Origin: a virus
Taxonomy: Duplodnaviria; Caudoviricetes
Length of the DNA: 56,109 bases
Direction: 5' to 3' (one strand)
Virus record (IMG/VR): IMGVR_UViG_3300037420_000316
Location: 1-56,109 of that record
Part shown: positions 507 through 56,109 of the stretch, piece by piece
Layout of the letters: the number at the start of each line of letters is the position of its first letter
How positions within the stretch are numbered: position 1 is the stretch's first letter
Program-made: the position numbers and the translations under genes
The notes under the pieces: generated by a model
Database searches by the model: none
What the model was told of the DNA's origin: nothing
Seen by the model: only the letters and a program-made list of their open reading frames with translations

Positions 507-821
507 ATGTCGTGGTCGAATAGCACCAGACGAGATCGCCTCCCTCCCGATTGGCAGTCCATTCGCCGTCGCATTCTCCGACGCGACGGATACATGTGCC
601 AGTGGCGACTTCCTGATGGAACTCTCTGTCTCGATTCCGCCACTGATGTAGACCACATAAACCCCGGTGACGACCACCGGGAATCCAACCTCCAGTCGCT
701 ATGCCCGATGCATCACGCACGGAAGAGTGCCGGCGAGGGCGGTAAAGCCGTTGCAGCAAAGAAGCGAGCGGCGGCAAACAGGTTTCAACGGGTCGAGGAG
801 CACCCCGGCCTAATGCGGTGA
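507..821 (+). CDS. HNH endonuclease (packaging-associated)
   Basis: RDGYMCQ...ATDVDHI...NLQSLCPMHH; GGGAGG RBS before ATG 507; upstream of terminase. Confidence 0.88.
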   Translation: MSWSNSTRRDRLPPDWQSIRRRILRRDGYMCQWRLPDGTLCLDSATDVDHINPGDDHRESNLQSLCPMHHARKSAGEGGKAVAAKKRAAANRFQRVEEHPGLMR

Positions 822-887
822 CCGCTGTGCGCGGAGGCGAGATTCCAACCCTTGCCGTGCGGGGTTCGATTCCTCGTCGCCGTGCCA
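815..887 (+). tRNA. Non-canonical tRNA-Trp(CCA)-like gene
   Basis: Acceptor GCGGTGA/TCGCCGT, G discriminator, encoded CCA; T arm CGGGG-TTCGATT-CCTCG; anticodon stem GGCGAG/CTTGCC with TT-CCA-AC loop; reduced D arm CCGC-TGTGC-GCGG. Confidence 0.65.
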
Positions 888-888
888 T

Positions 889-961
889 TCCCCTGTAGCT
901 CAGTTGGTAGAGCGAGGGCTTGTTAAGCCCCAGGTCCTAGGTTCGAGTCCTAGTGGGGGAG
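889..961 (+). tRNA. tRNA-Asn(GTT)
   Basis: Acceptor TCCCCTG/TGGGGGA, D arm GCTC-AGTTGGTA-GAGC, loop TT-GTT-AA, T arm CTAGG-TTCGAGT-CCTAG, G73; CCA not encoded. Confidence 0.92.
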
Positions 962-965
962 CGCA

Positions 966-1063
966 GAGGGTTATGCGGGTTCGAGTCCCGTCCGCAGGGA
1001 GTAACGACGGCTGGTCGCGACCGGCTCGAGCATCTGCGGTAGCTCAATGGGCAGAGCACCCTC
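966..1063 (+). ncRNA. Circularly permuted tRNA-like RNA (3' half precedes 5' half)
   Basis: GAGGG (966-970), T arm GCGGG-TTCGAGT-CCCGT, CCGCAGG (992-998), 34-nt linker, TCTGCGG (1033-1039), TA, D arm GCTC-AATGGGCA-GAGC, A, CCCTC (1059-1063); acceptor and anticodon stems pair across the halves. Confidence 0.8.
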
Positions 1064-1297
1064 GATTCTTACCCACCCCGTCCCTCGTGGGCGGGGTGTT
1101 CCATCCTCGGACTCCCCCGAGCGGCACGGGTCGCAACCTGCACGTTGGGAATCAGGAGTCCGACCACTTGGGGTTGAGGCGCGGAGCTCCGCTACCGGCT
1201 CCCCTCCCCCACGCCCCCTGCGAGTTGAGCGCGGTCCCCTCTCCCCGCCATCGCTCCTCGCAGGGGGCCTTCGACTTCCACAAGCAAGGAGAGCCCC

Positions 1298-11777: not shown

Positions 11778-11816
11778 TCCCAGTGTTTCAAAGTGAAACA
11801 CCCAAGTCCGCATTCC

Positions 11817-11890
11817 GCTCCCTTAGCTCAGTTGGTTAGAGCACCCGCCTCTTAAGCGGATTGTCACTGGTTCGAGTCCAGTAGGGAGTA
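11817..11890 (+). tRNA. tRNA-Lys(CTT)
   Basis: Acceptor GCTCCCT/AGGGAGT, D arm GCTC-AGTTGGTTA-GAGC, loop CT-CTT-AA, T arm ACTGG-TTCGAGT-CCAGT, A73. Confidence 0.93.
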
Positions 11891-11939
11891 CGGCGATTCC
11901 GCCATTCCATAAACCCTTAGACAAGGAGTCCGCAAACTC

Positions 11940-23032: not shown

Positions 23033-23064
23033 CTGCTGCTTCAGAGTGTTTCAGGTTGAAACAC

Positions 23065-36464: not shown

Positions 36465-38072
36465 ATGGAGCAGACCTACGAGTGGAGCGAGATCGACCTC
36501 GCCCACCTTCGCGAACTGGAAGCCGCCAACGAGAGCCTTCCCGCCGACTCCCCCAGAGCACTTCTCTCAGTGCGTCTGTCGGTCTTCACAGACGACACTA
36601 CGTCGCCGGTCAGGCAGGAGCTGGACCTTCGCCGACTGGCCCTCGAGCGCGGTCACCGCGTGGTCGGAGTGGCGAGCGATCTCGGCGTCTCGGCGACCAA
36701 GGTGCCGCCGTGGAAGCGCAAGAGCCTCGGCGACTGGCTGAACAATCGGGTGCCCGAGTTCGACACGATCCTGTTCTGGAAGCTCGACCGCTTCATCCGC
36801 AATCTGACCGACCTGAACGTGATGATCCGGTGGGCCGAGACCTACCACAAGAACCTCGTCTCCAAGAACGACCCCATCGACCTGACGACCACGATGGGCA
36901 AGATCATGGTCACCTTCATCGGAGGCGTGGCCGAGATCGAGGCAGCCAACACGAAGCTCCGGGTCGAGTCCCTGTGGGCCTACGCCAAAGGGCAGGAGGA
37001 GTGGGTCGTCGGGAAGCCGCCGTACGGCTACACCACCACCACTGATGAGACCGGACGACGGACCCTGACCTTCAAGGAGGATGATGTCCGTGCTCTCAAC
37101 TTCGCCCGCGAGCGGCTGCTGGCCGGCGACTCCCTCACGGCCATCACGAAGGAGCTCAAGGAGCGCGGTCTCATGTCCGAGGGGCTTCAGGTCTCCACAC
37201 TGAAGCGTCGACTCTCCAACCCCGGACTGCTCGGCTACCGGGTCGAGGAGAACAAGAGCGACGGAGTGAACGACTTCCGTCGATCCAAGTTGGTCCTGAA
37301 CGATCAGGGCGACCCGATCCGAGTGGGGCCTGCGATCTTCGAGCGGGACGAGTGGGACGAGATCCAGAGGCAGCTCGCCAAGCGAGCCAAGGCCCAGCCG
37401 GGTCGCCCGGTGAACCAGCGAGCCACCAAGTTCCTCGGCGTGCTGAAGTGTGCCGACTGCGGCTCGAACATGACGGTGAAGCGGACGACGTACCCACCCA
37501 ACGAGAAGCGACGGAACACCCAGACGCTGGTCTACGAGCACCTGCGCTGCCAGACCTGCAAGAGCGGTGGCCTCGGTGCTCCCAACCCGCAGGCGGTCTA
37601 CGACGCGCTCGTGGCGATGGTGCTCGAGGTGATCGGGGACTTCCCCATCGAGTCCAGGGAGTACGCCCGTGGCGAGGAGATGCGCCAGCGCGTGACCGAG
37701 TTGCAGAACCGGATCGCGTACTACATGAAGGGCCTCGAGCCGGGAGGCCGGCTGACCAAGACGAAGTTCTCGGAGCAGCAGGCCGAGGCCGCGCTCGACG
37801 CGGCTATCGCGGAGCTCGAGGGCATTGACCCGGAGACGACGGAGGATCGCTGGATCTACGTCGACCAGGGCAAGACGTTCCGTGAGCATTGGGAGGAAGG
37901 CGGCATGGAGCAGATGCAAGAGGATCTCCTCCGGGCCGGCATCGAGTGCGTGGTGACGAGGACCAAGGTGCCCCGGCAGCGGTCGCCCAAGGTCGACCTG
38001 AAGCTGCGCATCCCGAAGGACGTGAGGCAGCGGCTCATCCGCAAGGCCGACGACTTCGAGAACCCCCTGTAA
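36465..38072 (+). CDS. Large serine integrase
   Basis: SVRLS..S.VRQ catalytic motif, DLGVSA, WKLDRFIR, GKPPYGY, LKCADCGS zinc ribbon. Confidence 0.95.
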   Translation: MEQTYEWSEIDLAHLRELEAANESLPADSPRALLSVRLSVFTDDTTSPVRQELDLRRLALERGHRVVGVASDLGVSATKVPPWKRKSLGDWLNNRVPEFDTILFWKLDRFIRNLTDLNVMIRWAETYHKNLVSKNDPIDLTTTMGKIMVTFIGGVAEIEAANTKLRVESLWAYAKGQEEWVVGKPPYGYTTTTDETGRRTLTFKEDDVRALNFARERLLAGDSLTAITKELKERGLMSEGLQVSTLKRRLSNPGLLGYRVEENKSDGVNDFRRSKLVLNDQGDPIRVGPAIFERDEWDEIQRQLAKRAKAQPGRPVNQRATKFLGVLKCADCGSNMTVKRTTYPPNEKRRNTQTLVYEHLRCQTCKSGGLGAPNPQAVYDALVAMVLEVIGDFPIESREYARGEEMRQRVTELQNRIAYYMKGLEPGGRLTKTKFSEQQAEAALDAAIAELEGIDPETTEDRWIYVDQGKTFREHWEEGGMEQMQEDLLRAGIECVVTRTKVPRQRSPKVDLKLRIPKDVRQRLIRKADDFENPL

Positions 38073-41391: not shown

Positions 41392-41597
41392 GCTCCGTTC
41401 TGGTTGAAGTGGTGGACGGGCACCGCATGGCGCTTCCCGTAGCGGTTCTTGATGACCACGCCGTTGTCGATGACGATGTGCGCGACCTCGAGGCGTCGAC
41501 TGGCGTTGCCCTGCCGCGCTTCGTTCATGAGCCACCCCGGCACGAGGTAGAGCGTGTTGCCGTCCTCGAGCAGGACGAGCGTCTTCTCGTAGTCCAT
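41388..41597 (-). CDS. Hypothetical protein
   Basis: Translationally coupled between rtcB and the ATPase; VIKNRYG. Confidence 0.6.
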   Translation of the reverse strand: MDYEKTLVLLEDGNTLYLVPGWLMNEARQGNASRRLEVAHIVIDNGVVIKNRYGKRHAVPVHHFNQNGA

Positions 41598-42799
41598 CAG
41601 TCGCCCTTCACGTTCACGATCTGCGACAGCTCGTACTGGACCTCCACGAGCTCGGCGGCGTCGTCCATCACCACGTCGATGTCCTTGTAGGCGGCGGGGA
41701 TCTCGTCCACGAACGCATCGGTGTCGCGGTACTCGATGTCCCCCATCGCGGCACGCAGGTCCTCGACCGTGAACGCCTTGCGGGCAGCCGAGCGGCTGTA
41801 CTCCCGGCCAGCGCCGTGCGGAGCCGAGTTCAGCGCCAGGGCGTTGCCCTTGCCGGTGACGACGTACGAGCGGGTGCCCATCGAGCCGGGGATCAGGCCC
41901 CACTCGCCGGCCTTGGCCGAGATCGCACCCTTGCGGGACAGCCACACGTCCTGACCGAAGTGGTGCTCCTGCTCGGTGTAGTTGTGGTGGCAGTTGACCT
42001 CGTGGCTGATGCCGAGGTCGTCGCTGCCGATCCACTCCTTAAAGCAGTCCTCGACTCGCTCCATCATCTCTTCGCGGTTCAGGAGGGCGAACTCCTGTGC
42101 CCAGCGCAGCTCGCGGATGTAAGCCCAGAACTCGTCGGTGCCCTCGGGCAGGTAGGCGAGGTCGCGGTCGGGCAGGTCGATGAAGAACTTGTCCATGAGG
42201 CCCTGCGCCACCTTGATGTGGTGCTGCGCGATCTTGTTGCCCACGCCTCGGCTTCCCGAGTGCAGGAACAGCCAGAGGAAGCCCTCTTGGTCAGTTGAAA
42301 CTTCAACAAAGTGATTCCCCGAGCCCAGGGAGCCGAGCTGCAGCTCCCAGTTGCCGGCGTACTGGTCGGGGAAGAATCCGGCCTTCGCAGCCAGGCCGAA
42401 GAGGCGGTTCACCCGGTCCTCGGTGTTGAAGTTGTAGAAGGTGGTGTTGTACTTGCCGGCGCTCAGCGGGATGACCTTCTCGATGGCCTCGCGGAGCTCC
42501 TTGCGGTCGAGGCGGTCGACCTCCTCGAGCACGTAGCCGGTGCGCTTGGCGATCATGCCGCAGCCGATGTCCACGCCGACCGCAGCCGGGATGATCGCGC
42601 CCTTGGTCGGGATGACCGAGCCGACCGTCGCACCCTTGCCGAGGTGGGCGTCGGGCATGAGGGCGAGGTGCGGGTAGATGAACGGCATCGTGCTGGTCAT
42701 CTCGGCCTGCGTTCGGGTGTTCTCCTCGAGGATCGAGGCCCAGTTGATGACCTTGCCAGCGGGCTGACCGTGCTGGTTGTGAGCGATGATCTGCTCCAT
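41597..42799 (-). CDS. rtcB: RtcB RNA ligase
   Basis: MPDAHLGKG, VGVDIGCGM, LGSLGSGNHF, HSGSRG, HHNY, RKGA, IPGSMG, SAPHGAGR, DEIPAAYKDI, VKG. Confidence 0.95.
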   Translation of the reverse strand: MEQIIAHNQHGQPAGKVINWASILEENTRTQAEMTSTMPFIYPHLALMPDAHLGKGATVGSVIPTKGAIIPAAVGVDIGCGMIAKRTGYVLEEVDRLDRKELREAIEKVIPLSAGKYNTTFYNFNTEDRVNRLFGLAAKAGFFPDQYAGNWELQLGSLGSGNHFVEVSTDQEGFLWLFLHSGSRGVGNKIAQHHIKVAQGLMDKFFIDLPDRDLAYLPEGTDEFWAYIRELRWAQEFALLNREEMMERVEDCFKEWIGSDDLGISHEVNCHHNYTEQEHHFGQDVWLSRKGAISAKAGEWGLIPGSMGTRSYVVTGKGNALALNSAPHGAGREYSRSAARKAFTVEDLRAAMGDIEYRDTDAFVDEIPAAYKDIDVVMDDAAELVEVQYELSQIVNVKGD

Positions 42800-48613: not shown

Positions 48614-49435
48614 TCAGGCGATCTGCTCGAGCGGGTCGGGCTGGTTCGGCACGCGGCGGATCTCGACCTCGTAGGCGCTGGCGTAGACGCCGGCCACCTC
48701 GTCCCAGCCGTAGCCGAACGCGCCCTTGTCAGTGGTGAGCTCGTCGCGCTTCAGCCGCAGGACCCCCTCGAGCTGGTGCTCGCAGTAGCCGTCGCCCATG
48801 TAGGGGTTCCCGATGTAGAGGAACGGGTTGACGATCTCCACGAAGTCGTCGTTCATCGTGTCGTAGAGGTCGGACGGGCTGACGGCGTAGACGACCTGGA
48901 CGTTGGCACAGAAGCCGGGGTGGACGACCTCGGCGAGCGTGTCCTGCACGGCCTTAATGTTCGCCTCGGTGTTCTCGAGGCCGAGGATGTCGAGCACCTC
49001 TCCGAGGCCGGCGTCGTGGTCGATGTCTCCGAACAGGTGGCGCATGAGCACCATGCCGGTGGAGCCGGCGAGGTCGCGGATCGGGTTGGAGGTGTCGCGG
49101 TCCTCGATGGCGAAGCGCAGCTCGTCGTAGAAGTCCGTGCTCTCGAACGCCTCGCGGACAGCCTCGGCGATCTCGTAGCCATGAACCTCGGTCCACTCGC
49201 GCTCGGTCTGCTCCATGACCTCCTTGCGGTGGTAGTCCGCGCCCTCGTAGCGGGTCTCGTCCAGCCACTCCTCGAGCGACTCGTCCAGCGCCTCCCAGTC
49301 CTTGCCGGCGAGGGCGTCGACCTGCTCGTCGGTGAGGCCGTCGCGGTAGTCGACGTGGACCAGCTCGTACGAGCGGTCGAGGTTGGCCTTGCAGTCGTTG
49401 TAGAAGGTGGCGCGAAGGTCGGTGGTGTCGGTCAT
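48614..49435 (-). CDS. Acidic hypothetical protein
   Basis: 273 aa, Asp/Glu-rich; AAGGAG RBS after palindrome at 49460. Confidence 0.75.
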   Translation of the reverse strand: MTDTTDLRATFYNDCKANLDRSYELVHVDYRDGLTDEQVDALAGKDWEALDESLEEWLDETRYEGADYHRKEVMEQTEREWTEVHGYEIAEAVREAFESTDFYDELRFAIEDRDTSNPIRDLAGSTGMVLMRHLFGDIDHDAGLGEVLDILGLENTEANIKAVQDTLAEVVHPGFCANVQVVYAVSPSDLYDTMNDDFVEIVNPFLYIGNPYMGDGYCEHQLEGVLRLKRDELTTDKGAFGYGWDEVAGVYASAYEVEIRRVPNQPDPLEQIA

Positions 49436-49508
49436 GGCGTGCTCCTTGGAGGGTGGTGAGTGTTTCGTGTTGAAACACTGGGTGGTGGTGGTGGTGGTGG
49501 TCGAACCA

Positions 49509-49538
49509 ATCGTATCTCAGTTACACACCGAGTGGCAA
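49509..49538 (-). promoter_or_regulatory. Sigma70-type promoter with operator in the spacer
   Basis: TTGCCA-18 nt-TACGAT; 15-bp motif at 49514-49528. Confidence 0.65.
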
Positions 49539-49581
49539 ACTGAGTGGTGCCCCGAATCTTCCCCAAGCTTCAGGGCACCAC

Positions 49582-49647
49582 TGGTGCCTGCTGACGGACT
49601 CGAACCGTCACGGATGCACCCCACATGCATCCGGCTCCAGCACAGGC
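49582..49647 (-). ncRNA. D-arm-less tRNA-like RNA ending in ACCA
   Basis: GCCTGT-GCTGGAGC-CGGATGCA-TGTGGGG-TGCATCCG-TGACGG-TTCGAGT-CCGTCA-GCAGGC-A-CCA. Confidence 0.72.
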
Positions 49648-49652
49648 TCCGC

Positions 49653-50204
49653 TCAGTAGCGGAGGATCTTGCCGTAGAGGCTCACGAAGGAGGTACCGAA
49701 GCCGTTACCCCTTCTCCTGGCGTCCCAGAAGCAATGCTTCGAGTCCTCCTGGCGGCAGGGAGCGAGCAGGAACGCCGCCCCGTTGTTGAACTCGGCGTAG
49801 AGCCGGTCCCCGCCCCTGCCCAGCGTGCGAGTCAGTGCCGGCGTCGACACCGGGTGGTCGGCGCAGCGGATGCGCACGGACCCGTTGCCGTATCTCCTGC
49901 CGGCGCAGGTCTGGGCCGGCTGGTTGAGGTCACCCTCGTCGCCGTGCTCAGGGATCGACGGCTGGTTGCAGGGGGCCTGCGGGAGCTGGCCGCACTGGGG
50001 GTGGTGCTCGAGGCTCGGCAGTCCCGGCTGGGTCGGCAGCGTGGGCACGTCGGCGCACTGGCTCGGGTCGACCTGCGAGTGCCGCTCACAGTCGCTTCCC
50101 CCGTCGCCGGGGTCGTCGGCGTACGCCGCAGGCGTCTGGCCGAGAGCCAGGGTGGTGAACAGTGCTCCGAGGAGCACGGTGAGCAACTTGGTGGTGATCT
50201 TCAC
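49653..50204 (-). CDS. Secreted/surface protein (signal peptide, Pro/Cys-rich)
   Basis: MKITTKLLTVLLGALFTTLALG..AYA; PCRQEDSKHCFWDA..GNG.G.SFV. Confidence 0.7.
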   Translation of the reverse strand: MKITTKLLTVLLGALFTTLALGQTPAAYADDPGDGGSDCERHSQVDPSQCADVPTLPTQPGLPSLEHHPQCGQLPQAPCNQPSIPEHGDEGDLNQPAQTCAGRRYGNGSVRIRCADHPVSTPALTRTLGRGGDRLYAEFNNGAAFLLAPCRQEDSKHCFWDARRRGNGFGTSFVSLYGKILRY

Positions 50205-51026: not shown

Positions 51027-51112
51027 GTCGTGCTCCTGTCTGGTGTTTCAGGTTGAAACACTCGGTCTGGGGTGCGGGCCTCTCAGTTGCCCAAGAGGCC
51101 CGCACGAAGTTG

Positions 51113-51994: not shown

Positions 51995-52096
51995 CGTGCT
52001 ACCTCTCGGTTCGGTGTTTCAGGTTGAAACACTCGGTGGTGGTGGTCGGTGAAGCTGATGGATGAATCCTCTCACTTTGCCACGCGAGTGGCAACC

Positions 52097-53943: not shown

Positions 53944-53995
53944 GTCGATCTCCTTGTGGTGATGGTCAGTGTTTCAGGTTGAAACACTCGGTTGG

Positions 53996-54325: not shown

Positions 54326-54402
54326 GCTGTCTCCCGTGTCTCGGTGTTTCAGGGTGAAACACTCGGTGGTGGTGGTCGGGTGGTGTTCAACTTGCTGACG
54401 CA

Positions 54403-55668: not shown

Positions 55669-56109
55669 GGTGACTTCCCTTCGGTGGGGGTGGTGGCCCG
55701 CTGTCTGCGGTGCCGATGAGAGAAAGGTAGTCCTCTCAGTTACACACCGCAAGTCCTTTCGGCAGATTGATCCAAGAATCTTTCGATTGAGCGTGGATCA
55801 CGAGTGTTTCAGGTTGAAACACACGGCATAGGTCACCCCCACGGCATCCCTTCCCTTGTGTGCGTTGTGTGCGTTGCGCGCGGTGTGTGGTGACGGTTCG
55901 GACTGAAACGCTCGAGTGTTTCAACCTGAAACACTCACCCCTTTCAGCCTCCCCTCCCCTTGTGTTCCAGGCCGAACGCACCGCGTGAAAGTCGACCGAT
56001 CAGCTCAGCTTTCAGCCGCCGGCAGTGAGGATGCATGTCTATGCATGGCGGTGCATGAGTATGCGTTCGACGGCGTGGGGTATGACCCCCGCCACGAGGC
56101 CACCCGCAC

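Follow-up and report, generated by a model that had tools for sequence, protein, structure and literature searches.

What is the role of a short piece of phage DNA that folds like the acceptor half of a tRNA, begins a few nucleotides behind a stop codon and has only a non-conserved hairpin where an anticodon arm should be? This question is raised by a 66-nt element in the right arm of a tailed-phage genome (Duplodnaviria; Caudoviricetes), the complete IMG/VR virus record IMGVR_UViG_3300037420_000316 (56,109 bp, G+C content approximately 65%), which was analyzed over its whole length and is called the window here. A sequence-only reading of this locus had described a tRNA mimic without a D arm, directly followed by a second hairpin, and had proposed either a decoy for tRNases, EF-Tu, RelA or SmpB or an mRNA 3'-processing signal. 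Comparison with related phages indicates that the 66-nt element is a real, selectively maintained tRNA-like RNA structure and not a tRNA gene; we regard it as more than a chance fold mainly because it is conserved with compensatory changes in a close relative (contig G001) and because a family of such elements occurs in other phages. With moderate confidence, we propose that it serves as a tRNA-like processing signal for host RNase P and the enzymes that act on 3' tRNA ends. The element and the hairpin behind it (hairpin 2) consist of the following parts.

49582-49647, - strand: the 66-nt reduced tRNA-like fold (from sequence, minimum free energy (MFE) and centroid folds, and the G001 homologue with compensatory changes)
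49647-49642, - strand: 5' strand of the acceptor stem, pairing with 49591-49586 through five Watson-Crick pairs and one U-G pair
49634-49641, - strand: mini D hairpin of 8 nt with 2 bp, whose loop UGGA displays GG (MFE fold)
49611-49633, - strand: perfect 8-bp hairpin with a 7-nt loop, in the position of an anticodon arm but not an anticodon arm (sequence, RNAfold)
49592-49610, - strand: T arm with a 6-bp stem and the loop UUCGAGU, an exact GGTTCGAGTCC (sequence)
49582-49591, - strand: 3' strand of the acceptor stem (49591-49586), discriminator A (49585) and CCA (49584-49582) (sequence)
49544-49581, - strand: hairpin 2, with a 13-bp stem, a G/A internal loop, a 3-bp tip with a GGGG loop and no U tract (sequence, fold)

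All features named by the sequence-only reading (6-bp acceptor, 6-bp T stem, TTCGAGT loop, discriminator A, CCA, retained GG, 8-bp stem, loop lacking U33 and second hairpin) are present in the sequence. The acceptor and T stems stack into 12 bp (6 + 6), and position 3-70 is a C-G pair. RNAfold returned the described fold for the isolated 66-mer, with a middle hairpin of 8-9 bp (-31.9 kcal/mol, z -2.5, 3 of 200 shuffles as good), and again for the 104-mer that includes hairpin 2 (-58.5 kcal/mol, z -5.05, 0 of 200 shuffles as good); the same fold was retained in a 148-nt context. In this structural model, the GG mini hairpin is predicted to be the D-loop partner of the T loop, forming the tRNA 'elbow'. 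Hairpin 2 could be ruled out as a classical intrinsic terminator by the absence of a U tract and by our terminator scan, which called no terminator-like site there. Logan contigs from four DNA runs were identical to the window across the element; in two of the four runs contigs ended at the element borders (49637 in one, 49537 and 49638 in the other), possibly just as a result of low depth (approximately 5-9).

Tests against known classes of tRNA-related RNA gave a consistent picture of a partial tRNA. The element was called neither by ARAGORN nor by the canonical tRNA model of Rfam (RF00005, gathering score 29 bits), and at E up to 10 the sole Rfam match on it was to tRNA-Sec (13.9 bits, E 6.5). 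A canonical T arm with a UUCRANY loop and a 12-bp acceptor stack was found in both the window and G001. On the other hand, a canonical D arm (3-4 bp stem, 8-11 nt loop) is missing, the corresponding region having 8 nt and at most 2 bp around UGGA, and so is a canonical anticodon arm (5 bp, 7-nt loop, U33), since the stem has 8 bp and position 33 is a G. The earlier statement that the tRNA-like domain of tmRNA is approached without its G3.U70 pair or tag reading frame proved correct: the pair is C3-G70, there is no tag open reading frame (ORF), and neither ARAGORN nor Rfam called a tmRNA. No match to the bacterial Y RNA family YrlA (RF02553) was present in 49400-49800, nor was a TROVE/Ro60 protein matched anywhere in the window record, a search in which control genomes did match. 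The mascRNA-menRNA model (RF01684, gathering score 42.5) gave no match on the window element.

The first line of evidence for selection comes from a close relative. A search with the large terminase identified five related IMG/VR contigs, one of which, G001, was complete (53,958 bp, terminase 88% identical). When four of these records were searched at the DNA level, the only significant match to the intergenic region was in G001 (77% identity), where the element lies at the syntenic genome end, 8 nt past the stop codon of a small secreted-looking protein. It folds into the same four-way junction, with a 7-bp acceptor, a 3-bp mini hairpin (loop AGG), a 5-bp hairpin closed by a UUCG loop and a T stem of 4-5 bp, so that the acceptor/T stack amounts to 7 + 5 bp. 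The T loop UUCGAGU and the discriminator A are identical to those of the window, as is the 14-nt tip of the hairpin that follows. These data, together with the fold itself, bear out the earlier description of a tRNA mimic in which the acceptor/T domain is intact and the D region, though reduced, keeps its GG. On the other hand, G001 carries A-C-U where the window has ACCA, and the UUCG tetraloop occupies the position of the window's 7-nt loop. As neither this loop nor the CCA is kept, the element is not a decoding RNA, and the encoded CCA is incidental.

MAFFT alone misaligned the 5' half of the two elements, and a model-guided alignment (A4) was used instead; 97% of its cells were paired, and 10 pairs differed on both sides (two of the six in the acceptor, two in the T stem, two in the middle hairpin and four in hairpin 2), counts that are biased toward structure because this alignment was fitted to the model. 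The surroundings have diverged far more. BLASTN between the window and G001 gave no match between 47379 and 52443 apart from the element block, the upstream proteins have only a 35-aa motif in common, and the downstream proteins are unrelated. Stems that remain intact through compensatory changes while their flanks have diverged past alignment indicate that selection acts on the RNA fold itself.

Outside this pair, the window/G001 form was rare in the IMG/VR, metagenome and genome-contig collections. When the region was compared with 50,697 phage records by BLASTN, nothing matched at E 1e-5, and at E up to 10 the matches (E=4) were confined to the T arms of unrelated phage tRNAs; with the G001 region there was no match at E up to 1. 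An exact 30-mer of the element was not found in IMG/VR. Pattern scans combining the T loop and the tip of hairpin 2 returned six stretches in IMG/VR (G001 as the sole homologue, the other five following ordinary tRNAs), 11 in metagenome contigs, with no homologue, and three in genome contigs, which were assigned to non-actinobacterial metagenome-assembled genomes from record titles only. The phage's methylase, used as a search handle, recovered G001 only. The two flanking ORFs had no relatives in IMG/VR, and in the phage collection they matched nothing except a protein of Gordonia phage Daredevil, at 26%.

The second and stronger line of evidence comes from more distant phages. The large terminase of the window shares 68-69% identity with the terminases of Streptomyces phage R4 and its relatives (Arquatrovirinae), and an alignment-based terminase scan yielded 80 relatives. 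The sequence-only reading had suggested a covariance search in phages; run on 50 of these 80 relatives with model R2 (window plus G001) and on 50 records with model R3 (the short form described below), this search revealed related, repeated elements in Camvirus phages of Streptomyces. The earlier account, which dealt with one element, was right about the fold and missed its membership in a repeated family. The R2 matches in several relatives were weak (16.6-28.9 bits, and in the same range when re-scored on the loci), and none of them was called by ARAGORN. The right arms of ten genomes were examined for GTTCGANTCC sites: eight of them contained 6-8 each, 53 in total, all on the - strand, and 51 of the 53 shared one architecture. 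This short form comprises a 5-bp acceptor, an 11-nt linker (A-s-y-GGCA-s-AC-a), a 6-bp T stem, the loop UUCGAGU and A-C-U; two to three unpaired nucleotides stand where the window has its 23-nt hairpin, and there is no arm in the anticodon position.

After removal of duplicates and the two non-conforming sites, 38 distinct copies were aligned with MAFFT, without gaps and without fitting to any structure. In this alignment 98.7% of the cells were paired, and 7 of the 12 pairs and 99 cells changed on both sides. None of 500 shuffles reached the observed pairing or covariation score, and pairing fell to 32-50% in slid-partner controls. The T loop was invariant in all 38 copies, as was the 11-nt GGTTCGAGTCC core, whereas the T stem covaried. 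An invariant GG in the linker (yGGCA) was enclosed by a covarying G-C/C-G pair (21:17, 100% paired), an isolated pair that is predicted to be a one-pair D stem. Discriminator A occurred in 37 of the 38 copies, and A-C-U likewise in 37. The encoded CCA noted earlier is thus present in the window but is not a feature of the family, given A-C-U in G001 and in nearly all Camvirus copies. An A precedes G1 in the window, G001 and 33 of the 38 copies, and the window's acceptor sequence GCCUG/CAGGC-A-C also occurs among them.

With model R3, 77 matches were obtained in 10 of the 50 records: eight genomes had 8-10 copies each, all on one strand, one provirus had four, and another had two weak ones. No match was found in the other 40 relatives. 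One of the eight genomes was 100% identical to Streptomyces phage Joe over the 4.9 kb tested, and homologous regions were found in the named Camvirus phages Sitrop, Endor1/2, Amela, Verse, phiCAM and Saftant and in the phiScoe phages. Variants with a longer D-like hairpin, negative by ARAGORN and located a few nucleotides past stop codons, were present in three proviruses (G007, G037 and G015); that of G007 has a 6-bp D-like stem with the loop UGGA, and that of G037 a loop AGGU. Neither R3 nor a single-sequence model (R1) gave a match in phages R4, Jevington, Salutena, VieEnRose and Marav, which indicates that the family is not general to the Arquatrovirinae. The window element has the 5-7 bp acceptor, the 5-6 bp T stem, the UUCGAGU loop, the covarying stems and the GG loop of the family, and it also has the expected position on the coding strand of the right arm, a few nucleotides past a stop codon and with a hairpin behind it; a full-length match to R3 is lacking. 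It is probably an expanded single-copy variant of the short Camvirus form, related to it by common descent.

The position of these elements is as regular as their structure. On the annotated records of Joe and Sitrop, R3 found eight copies each, and all 16 were intergenic and on the coding strand. In Joe, the distance from the upstream stop codon to G1 is 6-15 nt in seven of the eight copies and 134 nt in the remaining one. From the discriminator to the next start codon it is 32-50 nt, a stretch that contains a short variable hairpin and a Shine-Dalgarno sequence. One Sitrop copy (R3 match, locus 1811-1858) coincides with a GenBank 'tRNA-Arg' (NC_054676.1, 41493-41575; also in Endor2) that overlaps the 3' end of a coding sequence; this annotation is probably a tRNA-finder artefact built on the element. 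The neighbours of the window element are given below.

49653-50204, - strand: upstream ORF of 183 aa with a signal-peptide-like N-terminal segment (ORF list, GC3 0.90)
48614-49435, - strand: downstream ORF of 273 aa, not related to its counterpart behind the G001 element
49509-49538, - strand: promoter-like TTGCCA-18 nt-TACGAT for the downstream gene (scan: one found, 0.0 expected)
49459-49500, - strand: (CCA)6 tract followed by a GTGTTTCA-N4-GAAACAC palindrome, a copy of a repeated module ahead of right-arm genes

The upstream ORF ends in TGA (49655-49653), and the element starts 5 nt later with G1 at 49647. The C-terminal motif of its product matches phrog_19904 (E 3.4e-9), and the 35-aa motif mentioned above also occurs in a right-arm ORF of relative G016, upstream of one of the G016 copies, which is a weak hint that the positions of the elements may be orthologous. 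Behind hairpin 2 follow, in this order, the promoter-like site, the (CCA)6 tract, the palindrome, a Shine-Dalgarno sequence and the start of the 273-aa ORF; G001 has TTGACA-18 nt-TACCGT in the same alignment block, below the threshold of the scan. As this promoter- and operator-like region comes right after hairpin 2, the element would seem to close the upstream unit before a regulated promoter.

Among the functions suggested earlier, an mRNA 3'-processing signal and RNase P substrate appears to fit this anatomy best, because the element begins 5 nt past a stop codon and the copies in relatives are placed in a similar way. The parts of a tRNA that matter for processing have been kept, namely the 12-bp coaxial acceptor/T stack, the canonical T loop, the GG hairpin and the unpaired A. 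According to a published account, model hairpins that comprise no more than an acceptor stem, a T stem and a T loop are cleaved by bacterial RNase P RNA, and RNase P also cleaves phage M3 RNA, the precursor of P1/P7 C4 RNA, tRNA-like ends of plant viruses and mRNAs (PMC11143913). Under our proposal, host RNase P would cut the read-through transcript directly 5' of G1, so that the 3' untranslated region of the upstream mRNA would be very short, and host RNase Z or exonucleases, and then the CCA-adding enzyme, would act past the discriminator A. The outcome would be separated units of transcription and translation and the release of a small, stable, mini-tRNA-like RNA; in the window phage, the element and hairpin 2 would close the upstream unit ahead of the promoter- and operator-like region of the next gene. 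A wider version of this idea, tentative and on balance doubtful, is that mini-tRNA mimics of approximately 42-66 nt, each an acceptor/T minihelix with a GG elbow loop and no anticodon arm, serve as punctuation in the right-arm (presumably early) operons of Streptomyces phages belonging to the R4/Camvirus lineage. Cut by host RNase P and 3'-end enzymes, they would be a bacterial-virus counterpart of mitochondrial tRNA punctuation and would flood the cell with up to ten kinds of CCA-tailed RNA that act as sinks for tRNA-directed host factors or toxins; the window element would then be an expanded single-copy relative guarding one gene boundary.

Several observations weigh against these proposals. 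The window-G001 comparison involves two sequences, and the homology between the window and Camvirus elements rests on shared design, position and weak model scores. With model R3, the alignment is confined to the T arm, both in the window element (14.3 bits, E 0.11) and in G001 (15.0 bits), because a 23-nt hairpin is inserted in the linker of the window element. In a 191-nt context the MFE structure breaks the acceptor, whose 3' strand pairs with a downstream GUUUGC, so the tRNA-like fold is not the sole possible structure. The acceptor/T stack of the Camvirus copies has 11 bp rather than 12, and the conserved C-U after their discriminator fits no part of the proposal. In addition, the rightmost Camvirus copy overlaps a promoter-like TTGACT-17 nt-TAGGGT; a transcript from this site would lack the 5' acceptor strand. 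Finally, the window phage has a single copy and not one per gene, and general 'punctuation' therefore cannot be the role there.

How do other explanations compare with processing? One of them is compatible with it: the released RNA could act as a decoy or sponge that titrates a host reader of the acceptor/T/elbow domain, such as EF-Tu, RelA, an enzyme that modifies tRNA or adds CCA, or a defence toxin that attacks the 3' ends or elbows of tRNA, in which case RNase P would merely mature it, and up to 8-10 kinds would be made per Camvirus infection and one in the window phage. The retention of this protein-facing domain while the anticodon arm is dispensable would suit such a role, as would the tRNA-related cargo of the window phage (RtcB, two tRNA genes, a YrlA-like match and a tRNA-like piece at the left end). 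However, a pure decoy needs no siting 5-15 nt past the stop codon in nearly every right-arm gap, and most copies do not encode the 3' CCA that end-targeting enzymes need, although it could be added after trimming; we therefore consider the decoy unlikely as the explanation of the family. The constant nearness to the upstream stop (5 nt in the window, 8 nt in G001, 6-15 nt in seven of eight Joe copies), the variable hairpin, Shine-Dalgarno sequence and start codon within 32-50 nt, and hairpin 2 immediately behind the window element would also be expected of an RNA that works in cis without being cut, whether as a stabilizer against exonucleases, a signal for RNA polymerase pausing, termination or antitermination, or a signal for ribosome recycling or re-initiation. 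Such an RNA would have no need for the invariant T loop and GG loop of the elbow, which are the most conserved parts, and neither hairpin is followed by a U tract, so this role seems distinctly improbable.

The remaining explanations fare worse. The invariance of the 11-nt GGTTCGAGTCC core and the mosaic flanks of the window element could point to a site in DNA (a repressor stoperator, another protein site or a recombination linker) with an incidental RNA fold, and R4-like phages are described as having repressor-stoperator systems with eight or more intergenic sites (PMC10276819). Yet a DNA site does not require stems that vary while staying complementary (7 of 12 pairs changed on both sides), and separate stoperator candidates exist both in Joe and Sitrop (TGTGACAGTG(TGAG)) and in the window (the palindrome). 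As R4 has stoperators but no R3 match, and as TGTGACAGTG is the better candidate, the tRNA-like element does not appear to be the stoperator; the published R4 stoperator may instead be the candidate TGTGACAG-type repeat. We consider a DNA-level role very improbable. A functionless origin, as a decaying tRNA pseudogene or an attP-like 3' fragment of a tRNA, could be suggested by the tRNA-derived pieces elsewhere in the genome and by weak BLASTN matches (E 4) between the 3' half and the T arms of tRNA-Leu and tRNA-Cys genes in phages. But decay predicts broken stems, whereas these are intact and compensated next to diverged neighbors, and the family is repeated and position-specific; the sequence-only reading had itself named a lack of conserved pairing in homologues as the mark of a decayed remnant, and pairing is conserved with compensatory changes in both G001 and Camvirus. 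The attP variant is further opposed by the distance to the serine integrase (36465-38072), which is 11.5 kb away, when the attP of this recombinase class normally lies beside int (PMC5311408). A functionless remnant is hence hardly credible. It is virtually impossible that the element is an unusual decoding tRNA without a D arm: its 7-nt loop could present UGG (Pro) followed by G37, with a discriminator A and an encoded CCA, but it lacks U33, has an 8-bp stem instead of 5 bp and is negative with ARAGORN and the Rfam tRNA model, while G001 has a UUCG tetraloop at this place and the Camvirus copies have no arm at all.

The genomic context of the element contains several other repeats. A 20-bp palindrome, GTGTTTCA-N4-TGAAACAC, has 12-13 copies in the window, mostly just upstream of the starts of right-arm genes and often after CCACCACC, and it is probably an operator- or stoperator-like site of the window phage. 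Its copies include 51041-51061, 52012-52032, 53967-53987, 54342-54362, 55802-55822 and 55914-55934, as well as 11783-11801, 23046-23064 and the copy at 49459-49479 in the element's own intergenic region. A link between the (CCA)6 tract and a UGG 'anticodon' was considered and rejected, as the tract belongs to the repeated CCACCACC-plus-palindrome module and lies outside the element. The 10-mer AACTGAGAGG occurs on the - strand at nine gene junctions (55741, 53015, 51088, 50224, 48602, 47383, 45882, 42823 and 39262), where it joins a TGA stop codon and a GAGAGG Shine-Dalgarno sequence, which gives several right-arm genes an Asn-stop ending. The 10-mer forms a conserved stop/restart junction or linker, and within the promoter-like block, at approximately 49520, there is a near copy, AACTGAGAT. 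In the right arms of Joe and a relative, TGTGACAGTG(TGAG) has 8-10 copies on the coding strand, and it is also present in Sitrop; it is likely a stoperator in Joe and Sitrop. Some copies are located in the loop of the hairpin behind a tRNA-like element, and one lies between the -35 (TTGACT) and -10 (TAGGGT) sequences overlapping the first such element.

Up to approximately 38.4 kb, the genes of the window are on the + strand; the remainder, as far as the right end, are on the - strand. Besides the serine integrase, Pfam matches comprise ribonucleotide reductase, ThyX, a C5 DNA methylase, an AAA ATPase and an RtcB RNA ligase at 41597-42799 (E 3.3e-117). Two tRNA genes were identified by both ARAGORN and Rfam, tRNA-Asn (889-962) and tRNA-Lys (11817-11891), and neither has an encoded CCA. 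The tRNA-Lys(CUU) gene (+ strand) sits in the middle of a block of structural genes, with the palindrome copy 11783-11801 directly before it. Directly behind tRNA-Asn, at 954-1081 (+ strand), there is a YrlA-like match (RF02553, 35.7 bits, E 1.6e-5; gathering score 69) in which a T arm precedes a D arm, the order typical of YrlA; no YrlA-like match was found at the equivalent genome end of G001. A second tRNA-like piece occupies 814-887 (+ strand), starting 2 nt past the stop codon of an HNH-like ORF and ending in GCCA. Its T arm reads GGTTCGATTCC and its match to tRNA-Sec is weak (17.4 bits, E 5); ARAGORN did not call it, and RNAfold did not fold it into a cloverleaf.

tRNA-like folds are already known as processing marks in organelles, vertebrate long non-coding RNAs and plant viruses. 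In the case of mascRNA, an RNase P cut at the 5' side makes the 3' end of the upstream RNA, and RNase Z and CCA addition release the small RNA. Like the phage elements, mascRNA and its MEN-beta counterpart (from MALAT1 and NEAT1; RF01684) are reduced cloverleaves within longer transcripts, with a shortened GG-containing D region and a normal T arm and acceptor; unlike them, they are vertebrate and nuclear and keep an anticodon-like arm that is mostly absent from the phage copies. For one Camvirus copy the best Rfam resemblance was indeed to the mascRNA-menRNA family; at 26.2 bits (E 0.036), short of the gathering score of 42.5, this is a resemblance of design only. The t-elements of plant mitochondria and the tRNA punctuation of animal mitochondria likewise use tRNAs or tRNA-like folds as RNase P and RNase Z marks that define mRNA ends. 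The Camvirus layout of one element per gap resembles mitochondrial punctuation, but the latter is organellar and its marks are real tRNAs, and the window phage has one element only. Some mitochondrial tRNA-Ser lack the D arm and share with the window element a short loop in its place and an extended stem in the anticodon-arm position; they decode with a conserved anticodon loop, however, whereas the loop of the element is not conserved. The tRNA-like domain of tmRNA also combines an acceptor/T domain with a D loop lacking a normal stem, but is built from the two ends of a long RNA with a G3-U70 pair and a tag reading frame.

Model hairpins show that an acceptor stem with a T stem and T loop suffices for correct cleavage by bacterial RNase P, and phi80 M3 RNA, the P1/P7 C4 RNA precursor, the TYMV tRNA-like end and polycistronic mRNAs illustrate that natural non-tRNA molecules, phage RNAs and mRNAs among them, can serve as substrates (PMC11143913); no member of this group is a repeated intergenic family, and reports from actinophages are not known. 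YrlA and other bacterial Y RNAs, which occur in bacteria and phages, contain a module that mimics T and D arms and is handled by tRNA enzymes (PMC4201824), but they have permuted T-then-D arms and a Ro-binding stem and are encoded beside Ro60.

Full-text literature searches, outside which Smith et al. 2013 and supplements lie, returned no description of repeated, covarying, anticodon-less mini-tRNA mimics between phage genes, and Rfam 15 contains no family that reaches its gathering score on the element. The accessible parts of two Camvirus genome papers do not mention the elements, and one of them reports no tRNA genes in phage Kamino (PMC7650747, PMC11536984). If the elements are RNase P and RNase Z sites, they would explain how long polycistronic right-arm transcripts are cut in a very common group of Streptomyces phages, and the Sitrop 'tRNA-Arg' would be corrected in databases to one copy of this family. 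Streptomyces engineering would also gain a processing signal that is compact and portable. Should the released RNAs serve as decoys too, this would be a new kind of RNA-based counter-defence.

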